The position numbers were made by a program, and so were the translations under genes. From a virus (Duplodnaviria; Caudoviricetes), in IMG/VR virus record IMGVR_UViG_3300042197_002821, positions 1 through 56,144 of that record: DNA of 56,144 nt, one strand, 5' to 3'. This document shows positions 52 to 56,144 of the stretch, piece after piece. How positions within the stretch are numbered: the stretch's first letter is position 1; each line of letters begins with the position of its first letter. Under the pieces are notes generated by a model. That model saw nothing but the letters and a program-made list of their open reading frames with translations. It was not told the origin of the DNA and made no database searches.

Positions 52-126
52 GGTTCCATAGTATATCGGTTAGTATAGCGCCCTGTCACGGCGCAGGGAC
101 GGGTTCGACTCCCGTTGGGACCGCCA
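52..126 (+). tRNA. tRNA-Asp(GUC)
   Basis: Cloverleaf; anticodon arm gcgcc-ct-GTC-ac-ggcgc; GGTTCGA T-loop; encoded CCA. Confidence 0.95.
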
Positions 127-135
127 AAGTTTCTT

Positions 136-211
<76 letters not shown>

Positions 212-218
212 ATTTTAT

Positions 219-294
219 GCACCATTCGTCTAGAGGCCTAGGACACCACCCTTTCACGGTGGGTACACCGGTTCGAATCCGGTATGGTGTACCA
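219..294 (+). tRNA. tRNA-Glu(UUC)
   Basis: ccacc-ct-TTC-ac-ggtgg; canonical T arm; CCA. Confidence 0.95.
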
Positions 295-302
295 TTTTTA
301 TC

Positions 303-377
303 GCGGGTATAATTCAGGGGTAGAATGTTTCCTTGCCAAGGAAAATGCCGTCGGTTCGAATCCGACTACCCGCTCCA
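303..377 (+). tRNA. tRNA-Gly(GCC)
   Basis: tttcc-tt-GCC-aa-ggaaa; gcgggta/tacccgc; U73 then CCA. Confidence 0.95.
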
Positions 378-383
378 AGTTTT

Positions 384-478
384 GCTCCCATAGCTTAATG
401 GTAAAGCTCCCGGCTTATATCCGGGCGATGCCTCTAGATGAGGGGATGATCTAGGTTCGAATCCTAGTGGGAGTACCA
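384..478 (+). tRNA. tRNA-Ile(UAU) with long variable arm
   Basis: cccgg-ct-TAT-at-ccggg; ~25-nt variable region containing cctc/gagg hairpin; gctccca/tgggagt; CCA. Confidence 0.8.
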
Positions 479-482
479 ATAT

Positions 483-558
483 GTATCCTTAGTGTTTAAC
501 GGCAGCACGACAGTCTCCAAAACTGCTAGTGGGGGTTCGAATCCCTCAGGGTACGCCA
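483..558 (+). tRNA. tRNA-Trp(CCA)
   Basis: cagt-ct-CCA-aa-actg; gtatcct/agggtac; CCA. Confidence 0.9.
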
Positions 559-568
559 AACAATTCAT

Positions 569-646
569 GCAACGGTGGCGGAGTGGCCCAACGCAAGAGT
601 CTGCAAAACTCTAACCCCGTGAGTTCGAATCTCACCCGTTGCTCCA
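569..646 (+). tRNA. tRNA-Cys(GCA)
   Basis: agagt-ct-GCA-aa-actct; U73 discriminator; CCA. Confidence 0.95.
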
Positions 647-651
647 AACAT

Positions 652-739
652 GGAAGAGTGGTCGAGTGGTCTATGGCTCTAGTCTTGAAAACTAGCGGCT
701 CGCGAGGGTCCGTGGGTTCGAATCCCACCTCTTCCTCCA
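652..739 (+). tRNA. tRNA-Ser(UGA)
   Basis: ctagt-ct-TGA-aa-actag; long variable arm; ggaagag/ctcttcc; CCA. Confidence 0.93.
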
Positions 740-762
740 ATTTTATTTCTAGGAGATTTATC

Positions 763-810
763 ATGACTGATTCAGAAATTTGGAAGTTTATTAAAAACAA
801 CTATCAATAG
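763..810 (+). CDS. 15-aa mini-ORF MTDSEIWKFIKNNYQ (possibly a truncated gene)
   Basis: Strong AGGAG SD upstream of ATG; stop overlaps the next tRNA. Confidence 0.35.
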   Translation: MTDSEIWKFIKNNYQ

Positions 811-885
811 CCACATAGCTCAGTCGGTTAGAGCACCATGTTGATAACGCGGGGGTCGTTGGTTCGAATCCTAGTTCCCCTGCCA
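809..885 (+). pseudogene. Chimeric/degenerate tRNA-Ile(GAU)
   Basis: Normal D arm and GAT anticodon, but acceptor agccaca/ttcccct has 4 of 7 mismatches and T stem gttgg/cctag is broken. Confidence 0.7.
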
Positions 886-889
886 AAGA

Positions 890-974
890 GTTCCGATCAT
901 CGCAGTGAGTGCAGCCGGCCGCCTATAAGGTTAGGGATGATCGTGCCGTCGCGGGTAAGCGGTGCCTCGGGAAC
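890..974 (+). ncRNA. Candidate structured RNA between tRNAs
   Basis: GC-rich spacer; gttcc/ggaac closing stem; cgatcatc/gatgatcg stem; not a cloverleaf. Confidence 0.4.
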
Positions 975-976
975 AT

Positions 977-1051
977 CGGTCCGTAGCTCAGTGGAAGAGT
1001 TCTGGTCTTCGAAACCAGCAGTCGGGAGTTCGAATCTCTCCGGACCGGCCA
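977..1051 (+). tRNA. tRNA-Arg(UCG)
   Basis: ctggt-ct-TCG-aa-accag; cggtccg/cggaccg; CCA. Confidence 0.92.
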
Positions 1052-1070
1052 AACATAAAAGGAGAATCTT

Positions 1071-1274
1071 ATGAAACTCGTGATGTTTAGAAATCGTGTC
1101 AATGGCGAGCGATTCGTCTGCGAAGATGTTCGTGCCGTTGAAGTCATAGACGGTGTGGAATATCTCACGGTACATCGCCCCAATGAACAGAGATCGTTTA
1201 AGATGCGCAGAGATGCGCTGGAGAAAGATACCGCCGTGGTGAAAGGGATATCACGAAACTTTGCGAAGGTTTAG
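1071..1274 (+). CDS. Hypothetical protein, 67 aa; 3' end overlaps a tRNA
   Basis: AGGAG SD, ATG, globular-looking sequence. Confidence 0.75.
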   Translation: MKLVMFRNRVNGERFVCEDVRAVEVIDGVEYLTVHRPNEQRSFKMRRDALEKDTAVVKGISRNFAKV

Positions 1275-1304
1275 TTTTAGGTTCGAGTCCTAACGGGGGT
1301 GCCA
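1230..1304 (+). tRNA. tRNA-Arg(GCG)
   Basis: aaact-tt-GCG-aa-ggttt; T arm ttagg-ttcgagt-cctaa; accgccg/cgggggt with one G-G mismatch; CCA. Confidence 0.75.
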
Positions 1305-1310
1305 AACGAT

Positions 1311-1386
1311 GCAGGGGATAGTGTACCGGTGCGCACAACTGTCTGTGAAACAGTAAGATAGGGTTCAACTCCCGTCCACCTGCCCA
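1311..1386 (+). tRNA. tRNA-His(GUG), somewhat degenerate
   Basis: actgt-ct-GTG-aa-acagt; G-1:C73 arrangement; mismatches in acceptor and T stems. Confidence 0.7.
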
Positions 1387-1388
1387 AA

Positions 1389-1464
1389 CCTGCTTTTGTA
1401 GATATGGTTATTACGCCGGTCTGAAGAGCCGGAGAACTCCGATCGTAACGGAGAGGCGGGACCA
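1389..1464 (+). tRNA. tRNA-Phe(GAA) with non-canonical T loop
   Basis: ccggt-ct-GAA-ga-gccgg; T arm ctccg-ATCGTAA-cggag; cctgctt/aggcggg; CCA. Confidence 0.75.
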
Positions 1465-1470
1465 AATATT

Positions 1471-1542
1471 GCCCCTGCAGATGGAGCTGTGCCAGGCCTT
1501 CTAAGCCAGGTTATGAGGGTTCGAATCCTTCCGGGGGCGCCA
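1471..1542 (+). tRNA. tRNA-Arg(UCU) with reduced D arm
   Basis: ggc-ct-TCT-aa-gcc; D region only cag-atggag-ctg; gcccctg/cgggggc; CCA. Confidence 0.7.
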
Positions 1543-1550
1543 TATAATCG

Positions 1551-1579
1551 TTGACTGAATACGAGAACGAATATATAAT
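1551..1579 (+). promoter_or_regulatory. sigma70-type promoter
   Basis: TTGACT-17-TATAAT upstream of tRNA-Leu. Confidence 0.85.
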
Positions 1580-1595
1580 AGACAAAGTTAGTAAC

Positions 1596-1678
1596 GCCCC
1601 GGTGGTGGAATGGTAGACACGCTGGTCTTAGAAGCCAGTGCCAAAAGCGTGAGAGTTCGAGTCTCTCCTGGGGCACCA
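1596..1678 (+). tRNA. tRNA-Leu(UAG)
   Basis: ctggt-ct-TAG-aa-gccag; variable arm; A73; CCA. Confidence 0.95.
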
Positions 1679-1684
1679 AAATAT

Positions 1685-1777
1685 GGAGCATTGACCGAGA
1701 GGCTTAAGGTACTTTCCTGCTAAGAAAGAGTCTGGTGATAAACTGGACCGTTGGTTCGAATCCAACATGCTCCGCCA
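1685..1777 (+). tRNA. tRNA-Ser(GCU)
   Basis: ctttc-ct-GCT-aa-gaaag; long variable arm; G73; CCA. Confidence 0.95.
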
Positions 1778-1794
1778 ACAAGAAAGGAAAGACC

Positions 1795-1878
1795 ATGACT
1801 AGAAAAGTTGTTGACAATATTGGATTCTTTTGTTTGGGTATCGTGTCTTATCATTTAATTTTAAGTTTCGGAGTGTAG
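1795..1878 (+). CDS. 27-aa hydrophobic mini-ORF MTRKVVDNIGFFCLGIVSYHLILSFGV
   Basis: AAGGA SD before ATG; stop lies inside the 5' end of tRNA-Pro. Confidence 0.35.
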   Translation: MTRKVVDNIGFFCLGIVSYHLILSFGV

Positions 1879-1945
1879 GTCAGCCTGGTAGACCGCTGCG
1901 TTTGGGACGCAGATGTCGCGAGTTCAAATCTTGCCACTCCGACCA
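1869..1945 (+). tRNA. tRNA-Pro(UGG)
   Basis: ctgcg-tt-TGG-ga-cgcag; cggagtg/cactccg; CCA. Confidence 0.95.
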
Positions 1946-1953
1946 GTTTTATC

Positions 1954-2029
1954 GCGCGGTTAGCTCAGTTGGTAGAGCTTCTCGCTTACACCGAGGAGGT
2001 CGGCGGTTCGAGTCCGTCACCGCGCACCA
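1954..2029 (+). tRNA. tRNA-Val(UAC)
   Basis: tctcg-ct-TAC-ac-cgagg; CCA. Confidence 0.95.
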
Positions 2030-2052
2030 GATTAAATTATAAGTATTATCAA

Positions 2053-2126
2053 GCCCCATTAGCATGAAGGTCGTGCAGCCGCCTTGTAAGCGGCAGGTGA
2101 TAGTTCAATTCTGTCATGGGGCACCA
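2053..2126 (+). tRNA. tRNA-Thr(UGU)
   Basis: gccgc-ct-TGT-aa-gcggc; gccccat/atggggc; CCA. Confidence 0.92.
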
Positions 2127-2134
2127 AGTTTTAA

Positions 2135-2208
2135 GCGGCGGTCGTATAATGGTAATACCCTAGCCTTCCAAGCTAGAGCCGCGGGTTCGATTCCCGCTCG
2201 CCGCTCCA
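2135..2208 (+). tRNA. tRNA-Gly(UCC)
   Basis: ctagc-ct-TCC-aa-gctag; U73; CCA. Confidence 0.95.
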
Positions 2209-2215
2209 AAGATAT

Positions 2216-2291
2216 CCGCCCTTAGCTCAGGGGACAGAGCAACAGCCTTCTAAGCTGTGGGTCGCACGTTCGATTCGTGCAGGGCGGGCCA
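2216..2291 (+). tRNA. tRNA-Arg(UCU)
   Basis: acagc-ct-TCT-aa-gctgt; ccgccct/agggcgg; CCA. Confidence 0.95.
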
Positions 2292-2306
2292 GTTTTATCA
2301 AAATGA

Positions 2307-2335
2307 TTTACAATCCGAGTTTTATATCTTATAAT
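2307..2335 (+). promoter_or_regulatory. sigma70-type promoter
   Basis: TTTACA-17-TATAAT upstream of rpoZ. Confidence 0.75.
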
Positions 2336-2356
2336 AAACGAAATAGGAAAACATCA

Positions 2357-2560
2357 ATGGCGAGAATTACTTCAGAAAAAGCTGTAGAGATCATGGGCAA
2401 TAAATTCGAGTTGATCCTAGTGGCAGCGGCCAGAGCCAGAGAACTAGCTCGAGGAAGTAGACCTCTAGTAGAATCCACCAATGGTACGGTAGTCACGGCT
2501 CTCAGAGAAATCGAAGCAGGAAAGATAGACAAGAAAGAATACCTAAGGAAAAGAAAATGA
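2357..2560 (+). CDS. rpoZ: RNA polymerase omega subunit
   Basis: MARIT...[17 protein letters not shown]...[11 protein letters not shown] omega signature; AGGA SD before ATG 2357. Confidence 0.92.
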
Positions 2561-3120
2561 AAATCAGCCTCAGAAAAGCCAACGCCATCCAGACATCGAT
2601 CAACGATGCGGTCCGTGCCCTAAGCTTCGAGACCACCGTGCGGATCAACGAATTCGAAAATCCCGAGCAGAAAATCTCAGAGGCACGAGCGGAATTCAAT
2701 CGCAATTTGGATAGAAAGATCGATCTGGATCTAGTATTGTACAGCATCCGCAAATCAGTGGGCGCTGCCAATCACACATCAGGCATCGACGGTCGTCTAG
2801 CCGATGTGGCCAGGATCGAAAAACAGATCCAACTGCTGACTGGGTTTTCCAAAGACCGAGTCAGAGAGTCTGCGTCAGTGATCTCAGGTAAACTGGAAAA
2901 GATCAAAGCTCGCAAAGAAGATTCTTTCTACGGGCGCGAAGCAGAAATCGCTACATCGATCTTTGACCGAGCGGATGTTACCAGATTCAAAGAGTCATTG
3001 GCTGCCCTGCGCAAAGAAAAACAGCGCATCCAGGACGAGATCCTTGAGCTCAATGTCCGCACTGAGATCACCCTCAGCGATGACGAAGTGGCCATACTCA
3101 AGGTAGACGGCATCGTTTGA
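2557..3120 (+). CDS. Coiled-coil protein resembling the DIP1984 family
   Basis: Helical 187 aa; [11 protein letters not shown] and C-terminal [17 protein letters not shown] pattern, compared from memory with DIP1984 proteins. Confidence 0.6.
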
Positions 3121-3125
3121 TTTCG

Positions 3126-3199
3126 TGCGGGATATTGAAATGGCATCATGGAGGTCTCATAAGCCTCCGTTCCTGGTTCGACTCCGGGTCCCGCTACCA
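3126..3199 (+). tRNA. tRNA(CAU), Met or Ile2; 1:72 mismatch
   Basis: gaggt-ct-CAT-aa-gcctc; tgcggga/tcccgct; CCA; lacks the three G-C anticodon-stem pairs of fMet. Confidence 0.85.
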
Positions 3200-3233
3200 G
3201 TTTTGCCAGTTTCGTAAAACTGGCCGGTGACAT

Positions 3234-3467
3234 GGGGGGTAGATGAGGATAGACACACCGTGTTTGGCCAAAAAGCCAAAGACACCTTTGACGACTGCGA
3301 CTGAAAATCGCGACGTGCTTGTGTGCGCCGATTCATACCTAACATAGATTGTCATTTGCTGATCGGAAATAGGCAGGCCTCTGTGGATTGTAGATTGAGG
3401 TTTGTTTGGGGAGTTTCTCGATGAGAGCTCCTGCTTGCATGTTGTCCGGTCTATTACTTGACCCTCC
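3234..3467 (+). ncRNA. Candidate ~235-nt structured RNA
   Basis: Ends pair (ggggggt/accctcc; gatagac/gtctatt); several internal hairpins; no credible ORF. Confidence 0.6.
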
Positions 3468-3486
3468 TTGGATCCGTTCATAACCG

Positions 3487-3515
3487 TTGACAACTCCTTA
3501 AAAAGATCATATACT
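3487..3515 (+). promoter_or_regulatory. sigma70-type promoter
   Basis: TTGACA-17-TATACT. Confidence 0.85.
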
Positions 3516-3521
3516 CAGTGT

Positions 3522-3624
3522 GTGACCGTAAGCAAACGGGGAAAGCTCTACGTCGTTAATCAGCGATGTCAGGAAGGGACTAGGCCATTGGCCGTCTTTG
3601 GGGGTTCGAGGCCCTCCGGTCACA
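3522..3624 (+). ncRNA. tRNA-like RNA without a canonical anticodon loop
   Basis: gtgaccg/cggtcac acceptor, D-like arm, ggggg-ttcgagg-ccctc T arm, extended middle arms, no CCA. Confidence 0.65.
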
Positions 3625-3628
3625 GTAG

Positions 3629-3703
3629 CTCTCCGTAGTTCAATGGATAGAACAAGACACTCCTAAGGTTTAGATCCTGGTTCGATTCCGGGCGGAGAGG
3701 CCA
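3629..3703 (+). tRNA. tRNA-Arg(CCU)
   Basis: ct-CCT-aa loop; ctctccg/cggagag; CCA. Confidence 0.88.
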
Positions 3704-6801: not shown

Positions 6802-6808
6802 ATAAATA
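6802..6808 (+). promoter_or_regulatory. T4-like late promoter motif ATAAATA
   Basis: Same motif precedes virion-type genes at 19570, 24187, 34255, 41174, 47954 and 54221. Confidence 0.6.
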
Positions 6809-45685: not shown

Positions 45686-47929
45686 ATGGTAGAACCCAGT
45701 GATCAACTTACCTCAGTATTCGAAAAAGCCGTCAGTGACTGCAAAAAACTAGACCACGAATACGTAACTCTAGAACATCTGATCTTTGCGATGTTCTGCG
45801 AAGAAAAGTTCTACGACCTAATATCTAACTTTGGTGCCGATGCCGATTATATCAAAGTTTCCCTAGAACACTATCTAAAAAACAATCTCACTGAGATCAA
45901 GATCGCAGAACCTACTAAGAATTTCAAACCCAAGAAAACACAGGCCGTAGAACGTGTGCTTAACCGAGCGTTCACGCAGGTCCTGTTCAGTGGCCGGCAG
46001 AACATAGAGTTGGTAGATGTGTTCCTAGCGGCTCTCAGCGAAAAGAGATCATACGCTGTCTACTATGTTACCAAAGGCGGCATAGACAAAGATAAGTTTG
46101 CTGAGTTCATCAACTCAGAAGCACCTGACGAGGAAATGCCAGCCAATGACTCACAGTTGGAAAAAGCTCTCAAAGAATACACTACCAATCTCAACGAACA
46201 GACCAAGAAGAACAAGATCGATCCAGTGATCGGACGATCGGAGGAGCTAGAACAGATCGCGCTGGGACTTGGACGTAGGACCAAGAACAACGTCCTGCTA
46301 GTTGGCGATCCTGGTGTAGGTAAAACTGCGATCGCAGAAGGTCTGGCCTATAACATCGTCAATGGCAATGTTCCTAACTTCCTCAAAGAATACACCGTTT
46401 ATAATCTCGATATCAGCAGCATGTTGGCCGGTTCTAAATATCGAGGAGACTTCGAAGAACGTTTCAAGATCGTGCTAAAAGCTCTGCAGACCAAAGGCAA
46501 AACTGTGCTGTTCATCGACGAAGCCCATATGATCTCCGGTGCAGGCGCAGGAGGTGGCAACAGTTCCAACGATCTAGCCAACATGATGAAGCCTGCACTG
46601 AGCAAAGGCAACATCAAAGTAGTGGCATCTACTACCTGGGAAGAATATCGCAAATATTTCGAAAAAGATCGTGCCCTGATGCGCAGATTCCAAAGGATCA
46701 CGGTAGACGAACCGTCACCAGAAATGAGCATTGAGATCCTCAGAGGCATCAAAAAATACTACGAGGATCATCACAAAGTAGAAATCACCGACGAAGCTAT
46801 CCAATCGGCGGTAAAACTGTCAGTGAAATACATGAACGATAAAAAACTACCCGACAAGGCCATCGATTTGATCGATGTAGCCTGTTCTAGGTTTAATATC
46901 AAAGACAGCGATACTCGTGTGATCGGTACCCAGGAAGTGCAGTTTGAGCTCAGTAAAATGGTCAAACTGCCCGAAGAAACTATCAAGGAAAAAGAAAGCA
47001 ACAATCTCGCAGGATTAGATAAGAACCTCAAGAGCGAAGTCTACGGGCAAGATGAAGCCATCGATGAAGTCGTAGACAAGATATTAGTAGCTCAAGCAGG
47101 ACTGAAACCCGAAAACAAACCCATTGGTAGCTTCGTGTTTATGGGCCCCACTGGTGTTGGTAAGACTGAAGCTGCCAAGCAGATTTCTAAGCATCTTGGT
47201 ATTCCTATGATACGTTTCGATATGAGCGAATATCAAGAGAAGCACTCAGTGTCGAAATTGATCGGTAGTCCTCCGGGCTATGTGGGCTTCGAAGAAAACG
47301 CAGGATTGCTGATCACGAAATTGCAGGAAAATCCACACTGCGTTCTACTGCTAGATGAGATAGAGAAAAGCCATCCTGATGTCAGTACCATCCTTTTACA
47401 GTTGATGGACAATGGTTTCGTCACTGGCAGCAATGGCAAAGTCGCAGATGCCCGAAACGTGATATTGATCATGACCACAAACCTAGGCGCATCAGAGGCT
47501 GAGAAGCTAAAGATTGGCTTCGGCAATCAGGAAAACGAATACGAAGACAAAGAAATCAAGAAATTCTTTGCACCAGAATTCCGCAATCGCTTAGACGGAG
47601 TGATCAGATTCGGCAGCCTCAGCAAAGAAACTATGATCAAGATCGTGGGCAAATTCCTCGTCGAGCTCAAAGAACAGATCAAAGACAAAGAAATCAAGAT
47701 CAAGATCGACAACGATGCCATCGATTACCTCGTAGACAAAGGATTCGATCGCAAGATGGGTGCAAGACCTCTGCAACGGGTCATAGACAAAGAAATCAAG
47801 CGTCCTTTGAGCAAAATGATGCTGTTCGGAGACTTGAAAAATGGCGGGAAGCTGTCGATAAACGTGTCTAATGATGGTTTAGAACTGATCACTGAACCAA
47901 AAGAGGATCTAGTTTCCGAAAGCAACTGA
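45686..47929 (+). CDS. clpA: ATP-dependent Clp protease ATPase subunit ClpA
   Basis: Clp N domain; two AAA+ modules (GDPGVGKT, GPTGVGKT); IGF loop; no M domain. Confidence 0.92.
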   Translation: MVEPSDQLTSVFEKAVSDCKKLDHEYVTLEHLIFAMFCEEKFYDLISNFGADADYIKVSLEHYLKNNLTEIKIAEPTKNFKPKKTQAVERVLNRAFTQVLFSGRQNIELVDVFLAALSEKRSYAVYYVTKGGIDKDKFAEFINSEAPDEEMPANDSQLEKALKEYTTNLNEQTKKNKIDPVIGRSEELEQIALGLGRRTKNNVLLVGDPGVGKTAIAEGLAYNIVNGNVPNFLKEYTVYNLDISSMLAGSKYRGDFEERFKIVLKALQTKGKTVLFIDEAHMISGAGAGGGNSSNDLANMMKPALSKGNIKVVASTTWEEYRKYFEKDRALMRRFQRITVDEPSPEMSIEILRGIKKYYEDHHKVEITDEAIQSAVKLSVKYMNDKKLPDKAIDLIDVACSRFNIKDSDTRVIGTQEVQFELSKMVKLPEETIKEKESNNLAGLDKNLKSEVYGQDEAIDEVVDKILVAQAGLKPENKPIGSFVFMGPTGVGKTEAAKQISKHLGIPMIRFDMSEYQEKHSVSKLIGSPPGYVGFEENAGLLITKLQENPHCVLLLDEIEKSHPDVSTILLQLMDNGFVTGSNGKVADARNVILIMTTNLGASEAEKLKIGFGNQENEYEDKEIKKFFAPEFRNRLDGVIRFGSLSKETMIKIVGKFLVELKEQIKDKEIKIKIDNDAIDYLVDKGFDRKMGARPLQRVIDKEIKRPLSKMMLFGDLKNGGKLSINVSNDGLELITEPKEDLVSESN

Positions 47930-47953: not shown

Positions 47954-47960
47954 ATAAATA
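47954..47960 (+). promoter_or_regulatory. Late promoter motif ATAAATA within a start-codon-occluding hairpin
   Basis: tagcataaa/tttatgcta and taggca/tgccta arms cover ATG 47983. Confidence 0.65.
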
Positions 47961-47982: not shown

Positions 47983-48339
47983 ATGCCTACTTTCAAAGAA
48001 CTATTCGAAAATCTAAGCAGACCAGAAAATTGGTTGGAAGAAACCTATCACGGCGACGATTTTCATCTGATCTACGGTGAGATCGAAGAGACCCTAGAGG
48101 AAGCTGAATACCGAGGACGTAAAGTTTCCCTAGGGAAGCCCATGCAGGGCGATGTCAAAAAATTCAAAGTCTATGTACGCAACCCTCAAGGGAATGTAGT
48201 CAAGGTTAATTTTGGTGATCCTAACATGAAGATCAAGAAAAGCGATCCGGCTCGAAGAAAATCTTTTCGCGCTCGACACAACTGCGACAATCCCGGTCCT
48301 CGAACCAAGGCTCGTTATTGGAGCTGTCGCAAATGGTGA
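47983..48339 (+). CDS. Probable internal head protein (acidic leader, basic C-terminal domain)
   Basis: MPTFKELFE start; VNFG, RRKSFRARH.C, ARYWSC.KW. Confidence 0.75.
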   Translation: MPTFKELFENLSRPENWLEETYHGDDFHLIYGEIEETLEEAEYRGRKVSLGKPMQGDVKKFKVYVRNPQGNVVKVNFGDPNMKIKKSDPARRKSFRARHNCDNPGPRTKARYWSCRKW

Positions 48340-48343
48340 TATC

Positions 48344-48685
48344 ATGCTGCTAAGAGAATTCATAAATTTAAAAGAATTAGAAGACGTAGATCTCTGTGAC
48401 GATCTGCAGGTATTCATGCGCAACGATCCGTTGTTCTATAGAAAAATATTTTATCCAGAGATCGTTAAAGTCAGAGACAGGATAAAATCCGGAAAAAGAT
48501 GCGAGGAAACCTGTTTCAGAAACTGTGTCGATCGAGCTGCAGATGCTTACTGCGAAAAATTCAAAGTATCAACCAATCCGATCAGTGTGTTTACTGAAGT
48601 AGATCGAGACAAAGTCGCTAGACAGATTTTCGCCAAAGAGCGAGACAACATCATCAAAGGCCGATATGACAGGAGTGAAGGATGA
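48344..48685 (+). CDS. Hypothetical, probable internal head protein
   Basis: MLLREFINLKE start. Confidence 0.7.
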   Translation: MLLREFINLKELEDVDLCDDLQVFMRNDPLFYRKIFYPEIVKVRDRIKSGKRCEETCFRNCVDRAADAYCEKFKVSTNPISVFTEVDRDKVARQIFAKERDNIIKGRYDRSEG

Positions 48686-49413
48686 TCATTTCCGAAGGTG
48701 GTAACGTAATACAGGGAGCAGTTCCTTTAAACAAAGCTGACTTTCCTCTAGTGATGGCCAATCTCGAAAAGATCTTGCCTAAAGGTTTGAATCTCTATCC
48801 TATCGGTTCCGCAGGCAAAAAAGAAGTCAGTTCTGACATAGACGCTTTGATTGATGCTGAAGAGCTGATGGCTGCTTTTCCTGCCAAAGAATTAAAGTTC
48901 AGTCGCAAAGAACTAGAAGACTATTTCAAGGCCAAGGGACTGCAGGCTGCGAGAACAGGTGTCAGCGTGCATGTGGGAATTTCCATCGGCGATACTGATA
49001 AGTTAGTACAAGTAGATCTCATGGCTGTAGAAAAGGCAGCAGCCGCACAGCCATTGCACATGCATGACTATGATGATCCTACCATGAAGGGCGGTACTCT
49101 GCATGCCATGTGGGCCGACCTCGCTAATCTCAGCAGCGTAGAAGGTCATCCTAGCCTGATGATGAGTCCCTACAAAGGACTAGTAGATAGGCAGACCAAA
49201 CAGTTGGTCACCGGCGATAAAGATGAGATAGCCAAGATAATCATAGGACCCACTGCTTCTGCTGCCGACATGGGCAATCCTAAGAAAGTCCTAGCAGCCC
49301 TGCGCAACTATCCAAAGAAGTATCATGAAATCAAAAACAAGTATTTTCCCGACATGCAGGAAGGTACCAATGTTTGGTTCCGGCAGATGATCAACATAGC
49401 GAGCGTGAAATGA
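48682..49413 (+). CDS. Pol-beta-superfamily nucleotidyltransferase-like protein
   Basis: IGSAGKKEVSSDIDALID (GS...DxD) and VQVDLM third Asp. Confidence 0.7.
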   Translation: MIISEGGNVIQGAVPLNKADFPLVMANLEKILPKGLNLYPIGSAGKKEVSSDIDALIDAEELMAAFPAKELKFSRKELEDYFKAKGLQAARTGVSVHVGISIGDTDKLVQVDLMAVEKAAAAQPLHMHDYDDPTMKGGTLHAMWADLANLSSVEGHPSLMMSPYKGLVDRQTKQLVTGDKDEIAKIIIGPTASAADMGNPKKVLAALRNYPKKYHEIKNKYFPDMQEGTNVWFRQMINIASVK

Positions 49414-50576
49414 GAGCTCGAGAATTCATTCTCAGAGAAGCTGCGCCAGCTATTGGTAGGAAATACCAGCACATAGAAGATCTAGTTTTTACCAATGGCA
49501 GCGACGGTGGAATACATGCCGCTGAGAGACTGCGGTCAATGGCTGGTCAAAGTGGTACCATAGAACTGAAATGGGACGGCAGCCCTGTGGTCTATTGGGG
49601 TCGGACCGAAGATGGTCAATTCATGCTGATACCTAAGAACGCCTGGGAATATCTCAAGCGAGGCAAGACTGAGTTAGATGGTGGAATCAAAACAGCAATG
49701 GCCGAACCCGGAGACATCAGCAAGTTCATCCTCGGCACTGGTAAGCCGCCCGAGAACAAAGAAGCCGAAGTCAAAAGAAAACAGTATGCCCAACAACTAG
49801 CCAGCTTGTGGCCATATTTCGAAAAAGCCAGTCCTCCAGATGGATTCATCGAAGGCGGGCTATTATTCTATCCTGGAACTAAACCGGATGGCTCCACTGC
49901 AGCAGCCGTGTTAAATCAAGAAACAGGCGAGTACGAATTTACTCCCAATATCACTACGTTCCATATACATCGAGATTCTGATCTAGGTAAAAGGATAGCC
50001 AAAGCTAAGATCATGATAGCAGCTACAGGATATTACAAAAATCTAGGCAGCTCCGAGGAAACTAGATATCCTGGTGCGCAGGGATTATCTACTAATGACG
50101 TCATAGTACAGGGCACTACCTACGTAGAAAAGGCTCCTGAGATCGACGACAGGCTAGTAGATCAAGCCGAGCAATACATAGAACAGAATGCCGCTGTCAT
50201 AGATCAGTTCCTAGCGCCTAAACCTGGATTGAGCAAACCTGGAGAAATACTCTATAAGTTTTACAATCAGAACAAACGTGTAGCTGGTGTCAAAGAAAAA
50301 TTCCGTGCATGGGCCGCAGAAAATTTGTCTGCTGGACAGGCCAACAAAGTAATAGCAGACAAAGGATTAGACGTAGTATTAAATGCCGTGGAAATGTTGA
50401 CGACTGCTAAAATGGATATGATCAAGAAGATCAGTTCCGGAACACATGGCGGAGTTAGGCAGACCAAACCCGAGGGATATGTGCAGGCGCATCCAGGCGG
50501 TAAGTTTAAGAAAGATATTCCAGGTCAGTTCGTCAAAGCCATCGATCAAGATACATGGGCACCAAGGAAAGAATAA
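49410..50576 (+). CDS. RNA-ligase-like covalent nucleotidyltransferase
   Basis: Motif I ELKWDGSP, III-like FIEGG, IV EGYV, V FVKAI. Confidence 0.65.
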   Translation: MRAREFILREAAPAIGRKYQHIEDLVFTNGSDGGIHAAERLRSMAGQSGTIELKWDGSPVVYWGRTEDGQFMLIPKNAWEYLKRGKTELDGGIKTAMAEPGDISKFILGTGKPPENKEAEVKRKQYAQQLASLWPYFEKASPPDGFIEGGLLFYPGTKPDGSTAAAVLNQETGEYEFTPNITTFHIHRDSDLGKRIAKAKIMIAATGYYKNLGSSEETRYPGAQGLSTNDVIVQGTTYVEKAPEIDDRLVDQAEQYIEQNAAVIDQFLAPKPGLSKPGEILYKFYNQNKRVAGVKEKFRAWAAENLSAGQANKVIADKGLDVVLNAVEMLTTAKMDMIKKISSGTHGGVRQTKPEGYVQAHPGGKFKKDIPGQFVKAIDQDTWAPRKE

Positions 50577-50577
50577 C

Positions 50578-51234
50578 ATGTTTATAAGAGAACTATTCGA
50601 AAAAATATCCAGAACCGGTCAAGGTGATACCGCAGTAGTAGGTTGGGGTCGAGGTATGGGGCACAAGGGACACATGATGTTGGCCAGCTCCGTGATCACA
50701 CAGGCTAAAAAATCTAACGGAGATCCTTACTTCGTCGTTAGCAGGACCGTTGGTAAAGATGATCCACTGACCGCCGATGAAAAGATCGCTATCTATAAAA
50801 AAGTTTTTCCTAAACAGGGACATATATTCCAAGCAGCCAGCGACGAGATACCTGATCTAACAAAAGTATTATCCAACCTAAATCAACAAGGTTATAAAAA
50901 TGCTATAGTAGTCTTAGGTGCGGATCAGGTCAAAGCCTTCCAATATCTAAAACAATACAATGGTAAACCTAACAAAAAAGGTGAGATACCTTTTGATTTT
51001 GATAATCTAGAAGTTATCAGCAGGCAGGAAACTGGAGATCCTTCAGCAGGTGAAGAGGGGCCAAGGGCTACTCCGCTAAGGAACATCTTAAACGATCCTA
51101 CCGTATCTCCCGAAGAACAGTTCAAAGCATGGAGAGATGCCATGAGTCCTGAACTCAGTGACGACGAAGTTAGAGCACTTATGGCCAAGGCCAAAGAGAG
51201 AATGGCTCAATTCGCTGCACCTAAGAAAAAATAG
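50578..51234 (+). CDS. HIGH-motif (cytidylyltransferase/NMNAT-like) nucleotidyltransferase
   Basis: WGRGMGHKGH, DPLT..EK, VVLGADQ, ATPLR. Confidence 0.7.
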   Translation: MFIRELFEKISRTGQGDTAVVGWGRGMGHKGHMMLASSVITQAKKSNGDPYFVVSRTVGKDDPLTADEKIAIYKKVFPKQGHIFQAASDEIPDLTKVLSNLNQQGYKNAIVVLGADQVKAFQYLKQYNGKPNKKGEIPFDFDNLEVISRQETGDPSAGEEGPRATPLRNILNDPTVSPEEQFKAWRDAMSPELSDDEVRALMAKAKERMAQFAAPKKK

Positions 51235-51235
51235 C

Positions 51236-51454
51236 ATGGACGAGCTCGATCGTATCAAGAAGTTAGCGGGCGTCAGCGAATTCAAAGGTTGGCAACCAGT
51301 GGCCACAGAAAACATTTCACATACTGGCACAGAAAAACATCGTCTTGAGCGAGAAATGAACATACGACCCGGTGATCTGGATTGGTTTAAGCTATGGTTC
51401 AGCCGGCCGTATTGGTTGGGCTTCCCACCTAAGTTTCGAGGTAGAAAGGCATGA
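51236..51454 (+). CDS. Small hypothetical head-associated protein
   Basis: MDELDRIKKLAGVSE start; same L.RI..L.G motif ends ORF 54248. Confidence 0.7.
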   Translation: MDELDRIKKLAGVSEFKGWQPVATENISHTGTEKHRLEREMNIRPGDLDWFKLWFSRPYWLGFPPKFRGRKA

Positions 51455-52758
51455 AGATCTCCGAGGTCGTCAACGAAGCAAAGAGAAAGAGACGGAGAAA
51501 GCGTGTTAAAGGTGCTGCCTACGGTCCGGGACCATTTGGCATGTACGGTACTGCCGTAGGCTATAGCGGAGCCGGTGGTGGTGGTGCAGGTGTTGCTGTA
51601 GGTGAGGCAGCCTATCCAGGAAATCTAGGAGCAATGGAACTAGCAGCTTTCTTCAAGAAAGCTACTCCACAACAAAAGGCCCTGTTAAAAAAATTCATAG
51701 AAGAAAAAAACAGTCGTTCAGCTTGGGCATTGATCAAAAAAATCACAGGCACTGAACTAGTAGGCAAAGAGTTTAACGAGGGAGAATACGTACAAGTAAC
51801 TTTAGATAACGGTGAAAAGAAATATCTACGTACTTTCGGAAAAAGAAACAAAGACATAATCAATTATTTTCGCAAGCTAGGACACCAAGTAGCCTGCATC
51901 GATAATCAATGCCCCCCATCAATAAAAGAAGATAACTTAGACGAAGGGTGGCGAGATTGGATAGCAGGTGCTGCGTTAGGTGCCGGTGTCGCTTTAAGCG
52001 GGCCTGCAGCAGCTGACGTAGAAAGAGTACAGGTACAAAAGGGTGATACCGTATATTCTATAGCTAAAGCGTTTAGTACTACCCCGCAGGTCATACAAAA
52101 ACTAAACAAACTAGATAAAAATTTTACGGTCAAACCTGGTCAAGAAATCAAAGTACCGAAATGGCCTGAAGTCAAAGAACCAGAGAAAAAGAAGCCAGAG
52201 AAAAAGAAGTCAGAGAAAAAACTCGATGTTAGTAAAACACTGACAGGTACCATGCACGAAGCTATATTAATCAGAGAAGCTAACCGTGCGGGAATAACCG
52301 ATCCGGTAGAACTAGCAGCGTTATTGTCACAGGCCGCTCACGAAAGCCATGATTTTAAATCTATGGTAGAATATGGCGGGAGCTTAGATTTTAAAAAGTA
52401 TGATCCTAAATATGCTCCCAAGAAGGCACGAGCTTTAGGAAATACCAAAGTGGGCGATGGTGCTAGATACAAAGGTCGAGGATACATACAGCTTACTGGT
52501 CGTTACAATTATAAACGTGCCGGTGAGGCTCTAGGCTTGCCTTTAGAAGCTAAACCAGAACTAGCAGAAAAACCAGAAATAGCTGCGAAAATAGCAGTAT
52601 GGTTTTGGAAGCAGCGTGTACAACCAAACGTGAATAATTTTGATGATGTTAGATCTGTGACCAAGCCTATAAATCCAGGCCTGGCTGGACTACAGGATAG
52701 AAAAGTAGCTTTCCAAGATTTCATAAACTTTACAAAATCTCTAGGAAGATCTATATGA
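51451..52758 (+). CDS. Modular protein ending in LysM + GH19 glycoside hydrolase
   Basis: VQKGDTVYSIAK...PGQEIKVP LysM; AAHES, YKGRGYIQLTGRYNY GH19. Confidence 0.85.
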   Translation: MKISEVVNEAKRKRRRKRVKGAAYGPGPFGMYGTAVGYSGAGGGGAGVAVGEAAYPGNLGAMELAAFFKKATPQQKALLKKFIEEKNSRSAWALIKKITGTELVGKEFNEGEYVQVTLDNGEKKYLRTFGKRNKDIINYFRKLGHQVACIDNQCPPSIKEDNLDEGWRDWIAGAALGAGVALSGPAAADVERVQVQKGDTVYSIAKAFSTTPQVIQKLNKLDKNFTVKPGQEIKVPKWPEVKEPEKKKPEKKKSEKKLDVSKTLTGTMHEAILIREANRAGITDPVELAALLSQAAHESHDFKSMVEYGGSLDFKKYDPKYAPKKARALGNTKVGDGARYKGRGYIQLTGRYNYKRAGEALGLPLEAKPELAEKPEIAAKIAVWFWKQRVQPNVNNFDDVRSVTKPINPGLAGLQDRKVAFQDFINFTKSLGRSI

Positions 52759-52955
52759 AAGTACGTGAAATAATTTCCGAAAACTTTGCGGATGGCAAAG
52801 TAAAGGGCAAGAGCCGTCCTGGTAGAGTTAAAAAATCAGGGGCTAGTTGTAAAGGTTCTGTAACAGATCTTAGAGCTCGTGCTAAGAAATACGGTGGCGA
52901 AAAAGGAAAGATGTATCATTGGTGTGCTAATATGAAAGGCGGTAAGAATAAATAA
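52755..52955 (+). CDS. Small basic probable internal head protein
   Basis: MKVREIISE start; Lys/Gly-rich. Confidence 0.7.
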   Translation: MKVREIISENFADGKVKGKSRPGRVKKSGASCKGSVTDLRARAKKYGGEKGKMYHWCANMKGGKNK

Positions 52956-52961
52956 CATATT

Positions 52962-54224
52962 ATGAAAATCAACGACATCATTTTAGAAAAAGCTGCTGCT
53001 AAACCTAGGAATTTCGTGGCTAAAAATGCCGGGAAAACTACCTCTGGTGCTGGCAAACATAAAGATAGAAAGAAAGCCGCAAAACAGGGAGATGTAAAAC
53101 ACAAAGGCAAGGTGATGGCGGAAGGCTCAGAGGATGATATAGAAGATACACGACAATGGAGAGATGCTATCGCTTTGGCCAAATCACAAAAGGCGATCCG
53201 TCAGGCTCGATATGGCAAAGATCAGAAATTTTATGCTGATGGAACGCCAGTGACCCCCGAGGAAGTTGCTCGCAGAGCCGCAGAAAGAAAAGCCAAAAAG
53301 AAAGGTGTGGCGGAAGGCATCAGTGTAGTTGATCAAGACTATGACTTAGATCAAATCATTTTAACCTTAGATATCGAAGGTCGGAGAGTATCATTTACCT
53401 ATACTGACTATGACGAAAACTTTGAAAACGCAGAACGTCGAGATGTGTTTGATCAACTACAGGAAAAATCATGGTATAAGGGTTTAGATCATCCTACTAA
53501 AATGGAGATCTTAGATGCTGCCTACAAGGCTATAAGAGGTGAAGAACCCAGCGAATACAAACCTAGAGTTGATGATGAGCCGTTAGACATAGACGAAGGG
53601 GTCTCGGAAGGCAGCGACTGGGGCGAACCTAGAGAGATACTGAAAGATGTTCTACAGACTTTGGAGCGTGAAGTAGAGTGGCCATTGACCGAGGTAATGG
53701 ATCCTAGAGAAGTACGCCAACTATTGGCACCTATCATAAAAGCAGTAAATGATAAAATGATGAGTATGAAAGAAGCACAAGACGACTGGGGCGGTATGAG
53801 CCACAGAGAATTCAAGCGTAAAGAATTACAGCATGAACTAGGACATGAAGACGATCCGGAATTTCAAAGACAGATGCGGGAAAAAGATCGCGGGCCCTGG
53901 TACATCAAAATCGACGGTCGTATTTACAAGCAGAAGGGCCAACCTAAAGCGTTTGACTGGAAAAAAGGTGCTAACAACTATGCATTGGCTATGGTAAAAA
54001 ATCAGCCTGCTCTCAAAAGTAAGATATTGTTAACTAAAAATCTCAGCGACGATGTTGCAGAAACTGCCACCACAGGATCTATGTCATCGGGTGATTTTTC
54101 TGTTGGTGCTGTATATCCTAACAAAAAGGGCAAGACCTACAAGAACAAAGACGGTACCACTAAAAATGCCCTGGATATCAAAGGTGGTAATTTATTAACT
54201 GGTGGCAGCATCGCCAAACGATAA
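52962..54224 (+). CDS. Modular polyprotein-like head protein with repeated V-A/S-E-G junctions
   Basis: MKINDIILE start; VMAEG, GVAEG, GVSEG, DVAET. Confidence 0.8.
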   Translation: MKINDIILEKAAAKPRNFVAKNAGKTTSGAGKHKDRKKAAKQGDVKHKGKVMAEGSEDDIEDTRQWRDAIALAKSQKAIRQARYGKDQKFYADGTPVTPEEVARRAAERKAKKKGVAEGISVVDQDYDLDQIILTLDIEGRRVSFTYTDYDENFENAERRDVFDQLQEKSWYKGLDHPTKMEILDAAYKAIRGEEPSEYKPRVDDEPLDIDEGVSEGSDWGEPREILKDVLQTLEREVEWPLTEVMDPREVRQLLAPIIKAVNDKMMSMKEAQDDWGGMSHREFKRKELQHELGHEDDPEFQRQMREKDRGPWYIKIDGRIYKQKGQPKAFDWKKGANNYALAMVKNQPALKSKILLTKNLSDDVAETATTGSMSSGDFSVGAVYPNKKGKTYKNKDGTTKNALDIKGGNLLTGGSIAKR

Positions 54225-54247
54225 ATACAGTATAACGGAGTTTAGAC

Positions 54248-55216
54248 ATGCCAGATTTACCAAAACAACAAGAACCTCAGATGCAGATGCAACTGAGCGT
54301 GCCGCAAGATGATCACGAAGGGCAGATGGCCCGCGCCGATTTATACAGAGCTGCTAAACATGCTATGAAGCTGTTCGAGATGATACAAGAAGGCCAAGAA
54401 CTAGAAGGATGGGTGCAGGCCAAGATCACAAAATCTGCAGACTATCTCGATTCGGTTTTCCACTACATGGAATATCAGATGAAATTTGGCGACGGTGCTA
54501 GGGCTAGCAGCGTTGATGACATCACTGGCGAAGCACAGGTCGCGAGAGAAAAAGAAGTGTCCGAAGAGGACGATGAAAAAATGGAGAGCAACATGAACTA
54601 TGATCAAAAACTCAAGGCACTTCTAGAAAGCGCCAAGAAAAAACAAGAAGAAAAGAAACCTGCTAAAAAAGTCGCAGAAAAAAAACCGGCCAAGAAAGAA
54701 GTCAAGACCGACGAAGCACTGGACATGAATCTAGTCAAGGCTGCGCAGAAAGGCCAAGCAGGCAAGCCTATCGGTAAGCCAGATGCCGAGAGCGACAAGA
54801 ACATTAAAAAGAAATACGGTTATCGTTCCGACGGCGAGCCTTCGGAGAAAGAAGACGAAGTAGGCAAGCAAGACCGCCCAGGCCGTAAGCGCAAGACCAA
54901 AGAAAGCATGGTCAAGGCAGTGATCAAGCGTGTAGTAGAAGCCAACAAACCCGATGTCAACAAAGACGGTATTCCTGACTATGCTCAAGACGGCAAAGGT
55001 GCCAAAGATCTAGGCAAAGGCAAGACGCCCGCAAACAAAGGCGGGGAGAAAAAAACTGCCAAAGGTATGACTGCTGCCCAGAAAAAATTACCTCCTGGAT
55101 TACAGAAAGCCATCGCTAAAAAGAAAGGTGCCAGCGAAAGCACAGTTTCCGCTAAGAAAGTAATGGCAGAATCTGTAGAACTAAATCGCATCAAGATGCT
55201 GAGTGGACTGAAATAA
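54248..55216 (+). CDS. Highly charged head/scaffold-like protein
   Basis: ATAAATA at 54221; DHEG.MA, LEGWVQAKITK; Lys-rich; ends ELNRIKMLSGLK. Confidence 0.75.
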   Translation: MPDLPKQQEPQMQMQLSVPQDDHEGQMARADLYRAAKHAMKLFEMIQEGQELEGWVQAKITKSADYLDSVFHYMEYQMKFGDGARASSVDDITGEAQVAREKEVSEEDDEKMESNMNYDQKLKALLESAKKKQEEKKPAKKVAEKKPAKKEVKTDEALDMNLVKAAQKGQAGKPIGKPDAESDKNIKKKYGYRSDGEPSEKEDEVGKQDRPGRKRKTKESMVKAVIKRVVEANKPDVNKDGIPDYAQDGKGAKDLGKGKTPANKGGEKKTAKGMTAAQKKLPPGLQKAIAKKKGASESTVSAKKVMAESVELNRIKMLSGLK

Positions 55217-55217
55217 A

Positions 55218-56144
55218 ATGGATATGAAGAAAATACTACAGGTCATAGACGGTGCTGTTAAACGGCCTGTAGTAGATTCTAGTGACATGAAACGATTTGT
55301 CAGTATCGTGGCTGAGAACAATGTTGCCGAGACTGCGAAATTGTCTGCCCAAGTAAAGCAAGGTGTGGGGGAAGATAGAGATCTCGGCGAACAGCGGTAC
55401 AAATTCCAGAGAATAAAATTCCGGGGTACGGACCATGACATCGGAGAAGAGCGATATGTTTTCGTTATCGACGGTAATCCAGAGGTTTTCAATTTCGCAA
55501 GTGATGAAGACAACCCGAACCCCGATAGTCCCAGTTTTGAAGAAATCTTAGCACGGGTGCAGAGAAGCGGGGCAGTGGCACATCATCGAATCACGCCTGC
55601 GGAACAACAGGCCATTGCCAAGAAGATCGCGGCCGAACGCCAGCGGTATCTAGATCAACGCCGGTCGGGTGTGGCGGAAGGCTTCTCTAACGATATGTCT
55701 ACCGAAGATATGATTGCGTATCTCCGACAACATCACGATAAGAATCTACACCCTGATTACATCAATCATCTAACAACGACCAACAGCAAGTTTGTCTTAA
55801 AAAAAATCCCATTGTCTTCTATTAAAACTGAATTGTCAGGATTGGATCGAGCAAAGGTAGAACAATACAAGCAAATGGATTTCAGCAAGGCTCCTCCTAT
55901 TGTAGTAGGCAGTGATGGTAATATCCTGGATGGTTATCATAGAGCCACAGTGGCAAAAGCATTGGGTATTCCTACTATCAAAGCCTATGTTGGCATAAAA
56001 GGTCAACAAGATGTCCAGGAAGGCGTCCCACAACCAGGAAAGTCTTCAGGAAAGCCTATATCTTGGATCTCACCTGAAAGAGTGATTACAAAATATTTGA
56101 CACTGAATGAGATTCTAAATTCTGTACAAGGAATTCCTTATTAT
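55218..56144 (+). CDS. Modular polyprotein-like protein containing a ParB/Srx module; runs off the window (absent from ORF track)
   Basis: Open frame from ATG 55218 to the end; QGVGED, SGVAEG, QDVQEG junctions; PPIVV...ILDGYHR. Confidence 0.8.
   Translation, partial: MDMKKILQVIDGAVKRPVVDSSDMKRFVSIVAENNVAETAKLSAQVKQGVGEDRDLGEQRYKFQRIKFRGTDHDIGEERYVFVIDGNPEVFNFASDEDNPNPDSPSFEEILARVQRSGAVAHHRITPAEQQAIAKKIAAERQRYLDQRRSGVAEGFSNDMSTEDMIAYLRQHHDKNLHPDYINHLTTTNSKFVLKKIPLSSIKTELSGLDRAKVEQYKQMDFSKAPPIVVGSDGNILDGYHRATVAKALGIPTIKAYVGIKGQQDVQEGVPQPGKSSGKPISWISPERVITKYLTLNEILNSVQGIPYY

Follow-up and report, generated by a model that had tools for sequence, protein, structure and literature searches.

Conserved 'linker' sequences between phage modules have long been postulated by the modular theory. 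In T4, as described in the sections consulted of one paper (PMC9026906), the sites of the prohead protease gp21 read L/I-X-E, with the cut behind the Glu; ten N-terminal residues, the capsid-targeting sequence, suffice to bring a foreign protein into the head; Asp at position 10 blocks processing and leaves targeting intact; and the sequence has been suggested to let T4-like phages load varied proteins. Polyvalent proteins, according to parts of a second paper (PMC5512222), hold two to fifteen conflict-related domains per polypeptide and are believed to accompany the DNA on delivery. Here we describe a short in-frame sequence encoding G-V-A-E-G that joins the modules of two polyprotein genes, G and I, at the end of IMG/VR record IMGVR_UViG_3300042197_002821. 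The whole record of 56,144 bp was analyzed (hereafter the window); it is rated 16% complete, which gives a genome of ~350 kb. This linker is a concrete case of the postulated inter-module linkers, here inside genes and kept at the nucleotide level.

Comparison of related contigs supports the linker as a DNA-level joint where relatives swap whole modules in frame, and the same sequence is a predicted cut site for a gp21-type protease in head-cargo polyproteins. We put the probability of this combined reading, in which the swap comes from comparison and the cut is inferred, at about 0.6. In the mechanism that we propose, G and I would be head-cargo polyproteins of a giant T4-related freshwater phage, and each chain would consist of a short N-terminal leader of the capsid-targeting type followed by several unrelated, separately folding modules joined by linkers. 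Co-infecting relatives would recombine at the linker, and whole modules would be exchanged, added or removed in frame; since an exchange at the linker keeps the frame, the new chains would be viable at once. One leader would bring the whole chain into the prohead, where the gp21-type protease (Peptidase S77) would cut after each Glu, and the products would remain inside the head and probably exit along with the DNA.

Genes G, H and I, with the modules and linkers of G and I, lie at the end of the window as follows (ORF, open reading frame; aa, amino acids; nt, nucleotides; X1 to X5, metagenome runs; L numbers, related loci):

52962-54224, + strand: gene G, ORF for a five-module polyprotein of 420 aa
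52962-53126, + strand: G leader MKINDIILE and a basic DUF7230-like head module, ending in VMAEG (53112-53126)
53127-53303, + strand: G module 2, ~92% nt identity to a module of the 634-aa polyprotein of L015
53304-53318, + strand: canonical linker GGTGTGGCGGAAGGC, the exact 15-mer, encoding G-V-A-E-G
53319-53597, + strand: G module 3, found behind other upstream modules in L003 and L007
53598-53612, + strand: linker variant GVSEG, with contig loose ends in runs X1, X3 and X5
53613-54050, + strand: G module 4; matches of relatives stop at residue 363
54051-54065, + strand: linker variant DVAET, aligning with the leader end M-K-I-K/R-E-I/L-F/L-E of stand-alone genes
54063-54221, + strand: G module 5, a small basic peptide, in most relatives a separate ~60-aa gene with its own leader
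54248-55216, + strand: gene H, 322 aa, conserved and Lys-rich, matched by 97 subject ORFs of the related loci
55218-56144, + strand: gene I, ORF for a polyprotein of 309 aa, 3' open at the record end
55362-55376, + strand: linker variant GVGED; contigs of runs X3 and X4 differ upstream of 55347
55377-55667, + strand: I module 2, GC-richer (0.526)
55668-55682, + strand: canonical linker GGTGTGGCGGAAGGC; contigs of runs X1, X3 and X4 have loose ends at 55664-55682
55683-56009, + strand: I module 3, ParB/sulfiredoxin-like fold, with at least four different upstream neighbours in relatives
56010-56024, + strand: linker variant DVQEG, model pLDDT <50; matches of relatives begin at residue 266

The record has two copies of the exact 15-mer, both on the + strand (53304-53318 and 55668-55682), and their flanks are unrelated to each other. 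When up to three mismatches were allowed, we found 6 matches in the window against 0.65 expected, a number that none of 100 shuffles reached. All seven sites are in frame: VMAEG, GVAEG, GVSEG and DVAET in gene G (ORF 52962-54224), and GVGED, GVAEG and DVQEG in gene I (ORF 55218-56144). With 14 repeated 15-mers in the window (about nine independent pairs), the exact repeat alone is not significant there. The original prediction, made from the letters of the window, had proposed the identical 15-mer in two genes and five in-frame variants delimiting unrelated modules of about 60-150 aa, and all of this held: the modules of G and I measure 55 to 151 residues, and every border is a homology border in relatives. 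Its remark that the module at 55377-55667 is more GC-rich than the next was also borne out (0.526 for 55377-55682, 0.398 for 55683-56024 and 0.449 for the window, in which ~10% of 300-nt windows reach 0.50).

The homology borders were read from public viral contigs, where 186 stretches related to gene G and 137 related to gene I were confirmed; the best 80 for each gave 160 loci. Matches to gene G in relatives span residues 1-57, 3-119, 1-363, 282-419 and 364-420, and those to gene I span residues 1-46/53, 55-158, 139-268, 151-260 and 266-309. When all ORFs of the 160 loci were compared by BLASTP, the alignment ends likewise clustered at the motif positions. The head module of G, which has weak DUF7230 and phrog_1359 matches, recurs in dozens of loci, where x-M/F/V-A-E-G/S comes after it and the sequence beyond is unrelated.

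Silent positions of the linker are kept well beyond the prediction from codon usage. Of the pentapeptides of this type in 262 unique related ORFs, GVAEG is the most frequent (36 occurrences), and we examined its codons in 33 unique contexts, taken from the window and from loci that had been fetched by protein similarity and are therefore unbiased for DNA. The five codons were GGT in 33, GTG in 30, GCG in 32, GAA in 31 and GGC in 26 contexts, against a usage in the 262 ORFs of 46% for GGT, 12% for GTG, 7% for GCG, 84% for GAA and 32% for GGC. The exact 15-mer was present in 24 of the 33 contexts (22 of 33 under an alternative definition of context). Between linkers from unrelated contexts the same-codon share was 0.857, against 0.42 expected from usage; for 18 pairs with one diverged homologous flank it was 0.80 in the linker and 0.58 in the flank. 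These measurements agree with the claim that synonymous codons are shared beyond what protein-level selection requires, with the motif codons held near-constant.

The linker also recurs widely and in one orientation. In the 2.4 Mb of loci, we found the 15-mer 44 times forward, on the gene strand, and never in reverse, and it was in frame in all 23 unique contexts. An exact scan of the viral collection placed it in at least 119 stretches, with 154 unique contexts among the matches listed. Among these, the G-V-A-E-G frame is the longest open frame in 141, and single ORFs carry up to six copies; of the 13 other contexts, 10 come from contigs with a GC of at least 0.55 and look like chance matches. 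The codon directly 5' of the motif is CAA in 101 of the 154 listed contexts, and the codon two upstream tends to end in G (AAG 35, CAG 19 and GAG 18, against AAA 13 and GAA 11), which opposes the GAA preference of the family. Hence, the fixed upstream CAA and third-base G indicate a nucleotide-level constraint over ~20 nt, with the DNA consensus NAG CAA GGT GTG GCG GAA GGC and the peptide (K/E/Q)-Q-G-V-A-E-G.

Breakpoints between related contigs map to the linker. Comparison of 149 canonical contexts gave 48 pairs similar on one side of the linker and unrelated on the other, and a single pair similar on both; the one-sided pairs take in 54 of the 149 contexts. In three context pairs, nt identity falls from 93-100% to ~25% within the linker. 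The identity of G module 2 to its counterpart in L015 is bounded by linkers on both sides, with unrelated flanks beyond. Corroborating joins came from contigs of four public freshwater or wastewater runs, in which 14 of the 24 listed loose ends (of 101) lie at most 6 nt from the seven linkers, which with their margins cover ~5% of the stretch tested. One contig of run X5 leads from the leader region of I through T-Q-K-G-V-A-E-G into G module 3, and one of run X4 leads from I module 2 through Q-D-V-S-E-G into G module 4, both in frame by their coordinates. These results uphold the part of the original prediction that made the motif a recombination joint, with whole modules gained or lost at breakpoints there.

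A joint from 53318 to 55354 in run X1 was set aside as unreliable, as its shorter side has 24 letters and it is out of frame. The summed contig depth was several-fold above that of the neighbours over 53275-53619 (G module 3) and 55575-55689 (end of I module 2) in three or four runs. This excess would fit modules carried by more genomes than their neighbours, with the depth itself being an unreliable measure.

The predicted cutting draws on leaders that end in Glu. Three genes upstream of G have such leaders as well as linker-fused relatives:

47983-48339, + strand: gene with leader MPTFKELFE, preceded by ATAAATA at 47954
50578-51234, + strand: gene D, leader MFIRELFE and a cytidylyltransferase-like enzyme (phrog_3041, E 7.9e-23)
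52755-52955, + strand: gene F, leader MKVREIISE and a 57-aa basic module

The leader pattern M-x(2-4)-D/E-hydrophobic-hydrophobic-x-Glu opens the window genes at 47983, 48344, 49410, 50578, 51451, 52755 and 52962, and we found linker-fused relatives among the 47983-52962 genes for D, F and the 47983 gene only. The module of gene F also stands behind Q-Q-D-M-A-E or Q-Q-G-V-A-E in polyproteins, in the same register (P0013; L127-L129). The L015/L018 polyprotein, which has three canonical linkers, has a homologue of gene D (66% identity) as its first module, and residues 32-118 of the 47983 gene lie behind GMAEG or GVSEG in longer ORFs of L024 and L025. Conversely, G module 5 is stand-alone in most relatives, behind M-K-I-K/R-E-I/L-F/L-E; the ParB-like module of gene I is stand-alone behind four different leaders, and once has leader and linker in tandem; two further modules also have both linker-joined and stand-alone leader forms. 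In five modules that occur linker-joined and stand-alone with the leader M-K/R-x-x-E-F/I-I/L-x-E, the Glu of leader and linker is in the same register.

Other features of the linkers are consistent with cleavage. Decayed linkers have kept the P1 Glu better than any other residue (in 40% of 188 contexts, with a background of 4%), and the trailing linker residues in the model of the ParB-like module have a pLDDT <50. Leaders occur on 25 of 97 linker-bearing 5'-complete frames and on 196 of 2232 others. Judged by the fit of the motif, the same-Glu leaders and the presence of the protease in close relatives, it is plausible that a T4-type prohead protease cuts at the linker. From their leaders, all seven leader-bearing window genes (47983-52962) could be head cargo. 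They include a LysM and GH19 wall hydrolase (51451-52758) with a Lys/Arg- and Gly-rich N-terminal extension, the cytidylyltransferase-like enzyme and a DUF6267 protein.

The protease itself was found in the relatives closest to the window. The ClpA-like protein of the window has 72%, 70% and 61% identity to those of the related records G006, G005 and G009, and all three have a Peptidase_S77 match above cut-off, as have 5 of the 10 long related records overall. G006 has the T4 gene order of portal, acidic protein, protease, scaffold and capsid protein, and its capsid protein matches the Gp23 family (E 2.7e-83). In a further record, G001, an HNH-type endonuclease-like ORF (L286 11670-12440) directly follows the capsid gene, and its visible H-x-x-P-x-S-x-G-G and H-x-x-x-H motifs suggest a homing-type enzyme. 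Linkers also occur in records that lack this head module in our searches. G002 (L290), rated 99% complete, contains four copies of the exact linker along with typical cargo genes that have leaders; searches of it for an S77 protease, for matches to the G001 protease and the G006 capsid protein and for Gp23 found nothing, and G003, which also has linkers, likewise gave no S77, capsid or Gp23 match. Four head-gene searches were made on these two records, with G006 as a positive control for the Gp23 family search only. Either the searches could not reach head genes as diverged as theirs, or phages with a different head module use the linker too; on this sequence evidence, the module pool may cross head lineages.

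The results for G002 and G003 count against a linker that is both joint and cut site in T4-type head cargo, and so do several others. S77 is absent from 5 of the 10 long records, three of which are 28-41% complete. No head genes were found in the 56-kb window, which represents 16% of the genome, so its S77 protease is inferred from relatives. The linker has Val at P3, where the published T4 rule has Leu or Ile, and 186 of 511 unique contexts have no hydrophobic-x-Glu at the aligned border, partly through alignment slack. Under the strict pattern, 72 of the 97 linker-bearing frames are without a leader, and the N-terminus of gene I differs from the leader pattern. For genes A, B, C and E, none of the 35, 32, 50 and 57 homologous subjects, respectively, was seen next to a linker. 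Finally, 15-20 nt is short for RecA-type recombination.

In one alternative, the linker would be a recombination joint only, with G and I as uncleaved multidomain 'polyvalent' proteins that act whole and G-V-A-E-G as a flexible spacer. The recombination evidence holds without any cutting, G002 and G003 combine linkers with no detected S77 protease, and some polyvalent proteins are packaged unprocessed, such as the N4 virion RNA polymerase (reported in the part consulted of PMC5512222). However, a plain spacer leaves unexplained why stand-alone modules have leaders that end with Glu in the same register and why decayed linkers keep Glu above all other residues, so we consider a joint without cleavage unlikely, though a serious contender. 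The exact repeat might also be due to chance or to a recent local duplication within the window, in which 15-mers are repeated as noted above. This we regard as refuted for practical purposes, because the 15-mer occurs in frame, in unrelated contexts and on many other phage contigs, and its flanks in the window are unrelated. Conservation of the silent positions for RNA or translation, through a pause at the rare codons GUG and GCG that would help modules fold, or through an RNA-binding site, draws on the low usage of GTG and GCG in these genes. Pausing leaves unexplained both the fixed common Gly codons (GGT 33/33, GGC 26/33) and the third-base G two codons upstream, which is independent of the residue; folding of the two window linkers gave no structure beyond shuffled controls (z 0.12 and 0.84, with folds that differ from each other), and the homology break exactly at the linker is also left unexplained. 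A role in RNA or translation is thus very improbable. The same shuffled-control folding ruled out an RNA hairpin at the linker.

The manner of exchange bears on the remaining alternatives. Tyrosine recombinases (PF00589) were found neither in the window nor in five long relatives, one of them 99% complete (controls, 14/14), and a RecA/UvsX-type recombinase is present in four of these five. We therefore favor general phage-driven homologous recombination on the short identical stretch, given that no integrase was found, that relatives have RecA/UvsX and that the linker shows no more structure than its shuffled controls. The identity of the linker would persist under this mechanism because only chains with canonical DNA can trade modules. 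A dedicated sequence-specific enzyme, such as a homing-type nuclease or a recombinase, that moves cassettes at a 20-nt site in an integron-like manner would account for conserved nucleotides that reach beyond the conserved residues and for the single orientation of the site, and the homing-type HNH gene adjoins the G001 capsid gene. Along with the missing tyrosine recombinase, it is opposed by a site that, by reading of its sequence, has no dyad symmetry, and by the fact that no enzyme gene was seen linked to the cargo loci, for which no systematic search was made; we judge such an enzyme improbable. Somewhat less doubtful, though still a speculation that we would not expect to hold, is a broader form in which the linker is the attachment site of an in-frame cassette system. 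Recombination between two linkers of a gene would excise a circle of one module and one linker, and the circle would re-enter any linker of a co-infecting phage, even across head lineages (G002, G003). Selection acting on the cassettes would maintain the site, perhaps together with a dedicated enzyme; the outcome would be a head-delivered pool shared between lineages, a 'protein integron' in which the joint is the cut signal. The original prediction had likewise called the array integron-like. This description is not supported, as PF00589 gave no match in the window or the five long relatives and the joint lies in the reading frame and has no hairpin. Its wider proposal of one sequence as both recombination joint and protease site survives in part: the swap joint with kept silent codons is supported and the protease site is plausible, without the integron-like, effector and injected wording.

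The wording on effectors concerns the function of the modules, and for this one module is informative. The AlphaFold model of I module 3 has a pLDDT of 88, and its top Foldseek matches in the PDB are all ParB-N or sulfiredoxin (best E 6.8e-4, TM about 0.5). By tblastn the module has a weak match to DarB-like proteins. DdrB-like ParB domains have been linked to late genes and head packaging (in the part consulted of PMC5512222). Scanned against Pfam with E up to 1, the other modules gave nothing above sub-threshold noise; a Pfam scan of G, H and I gave a weak DUF7230 in G and nothing in H or in I, which is 3' open. Hence, with one module of recognizable fold, 'effector' and 'injected' stay conjectural: these terms of the original prediction rest on one ParB/sulfiredoxin-like module, and the other modules are without family.

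Gene H, between the two polyprotein genes, has VMAES at 55160-55174 and then a C-terminal tail, L-x-R-I-K-x-L-S-G-L, that resembles the C-terminus of the G006 and G001 scaffold proteins. The motif L-x-R-I/L-K/R-x-L-S/A-G-L ends gene H (55175-55213), the G006 scaffold (L289 6059-7153) and the G001 scaffold (L286 9287-10381), and a similar motif opens a small ORF at 51233 (51233-51454; M-D-E-L-D-R-I-K-K-L-A-G-V). We also found it behind linkers inside polyproteins, in 17 unique cases, 8 of them at ORF ends. By this distribution, it may be a second, scaffold-like head-targeting signal.

The rest of the window has a tRNA block and, ahead of gene G, a promoter-like heptamer:

52-3703, start of the record: tRNA block of 22 genes
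52948-52954, + strand: ATAAATA heptamer ~8 nt 5' of gene G, resembling a T4 late promoter

Other products are a DNA ligase, a 2216-aa tail-fibre protein and the ClpA-like ATPase, in whose gene the 3' part (47544-47800) has a 15- to 18-nt repeat in three copies that encodes a repeated K-D-K-E-I-K. A + strand gene run of mostly unassigned function extends from 47983 onwards. Phage tRNAs were considered as a cause of the rare linker codons; the 22 include Val(tac), Gly(gcc), Gly(tcc) and Glu(ttc), and no Ala tRNA. Hence, with no Ala tRNA in the set, there is no link between the tRNAs and the rare linker codons. Against the cultured-phage collection, megablast of 52962-56144 and tblastn of gene G gave no match, and tblastn of gene I gave two weak DarB-like matches and nothing else. 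Hence, these genes have no cultured relative in the searched phage collection.

The heptamer ATAAATA starts at 6802, 19570, 24187, 34255, 41174, 47954, 52948 and 54221 on the + strand, and all eight copies lie about 9-30 nt 5' of an ORF start; the - strand has one copy. It precedes gene G, gene H, the gene at 47983 and the gene of the 2216-aa tail-fibre protein. We take the T4 late promoter to have an ATAAATA-like form, and the positions of the heptamer make it a likely late-promoter core. The strict T4 late promoter TATAAATA has one window copy, at 34254, and is less informative than the 7-mer.

Should the linker serve for exchange as well as for cutting, giant phages could change the set of proteins that they deliver with their DNA by single in-frame module moves, and neither new targeting nor new genes would need to evolve for this. 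By the same grammar of leader and linker, a single gene might be used to bring several proteins into a T4-type capsid. As a search handle, the 15- to 20-mer also finds candidate head-cargo proteins in metagenomes, most of them without an assigned function and some of them likely to act in counter-defence.

The original prediction held that the locus matches no system that can be named. We found close precedents in the T4 internal proteins, with their targeting sequence and gp21, and in the motif shuffling of T4-type phages. As far as the consulted sections of PMC9026906 describe them, T4 IPI, IPII, IPIII and Alt have, like G, F and D, a short N-terminal leader ending in hydrophobic-x-Glu and diverse, poorly conserved cargo. 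The nearest relatives of the window also share with T4 the S77 protease and the Gp23-family capsid protein. Unlike the T4 internal proteins, the cargo here is chained in one gene with an internal repeated site whose frozen DNA is the exchange point, and its targeting and cutting are predicted from sequence.

Polyvalent proteins (Iyer et al. 2017, PMC5512222, in the part consulted) resemble G and I in being multi-module and mosaic, with DdrB/DarB-like ParB domains and lysozymes near late genes. They differ in that processing by a built-in metallopeptidase (zincin-like MPTase) has been proposed for them and none such was found in G, H or I; the main text of that paper does not contain the word 'linker', and the modules here are small (55-151 aa). 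In the phiKZ-like phages 201phi2-1, phiKZ and SPN3US, many inner-body or ejection proteins are cut after Glu, some into several fragments, as the consulted parts of PMC9026906, PMC5694885 and PMC10052503 report. Their cut motif is S/A-X-E and their lineage is another, and those parts mention no repeated linker or DNA-level joint.

For the exchange of modules, the PeSL cassettes of T4-type phages offer a likeness at the DNA level, since a short conserved motif is repeated in hyperplastic regions and recombination there inserts, deletes or replaces genes, with mini-circles proposed as vectors (excerpts of PMC2839356). A PeSL is an intergenic promoter with a stem-loop terminator, whereas the linker is in frame, protein-coding (23/23; 141/154 listed) and without a stem-loop. 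The glycine-rich motifs of T-even gp38 are, like the linker, conserved in-frame motifs between variable segments, and exchanges nearby create chimeras (excerpts of PMC3157838). Those motifs are the structural core of one domain and not cleavage sites, whereas the linker joins unrelated, independent proteins. Literature searches on the peptide, on polyproteins with prohead proteases, on capsid-targeting sequences and on polyvalent proteins gave no description of such a linker. Hence, the nearest known kinds are T4 head cargo and motif-mediated shuffling, from which this predicted cargo differs in being chained by a repeated in-frame linker that is frozen at the DNA level.

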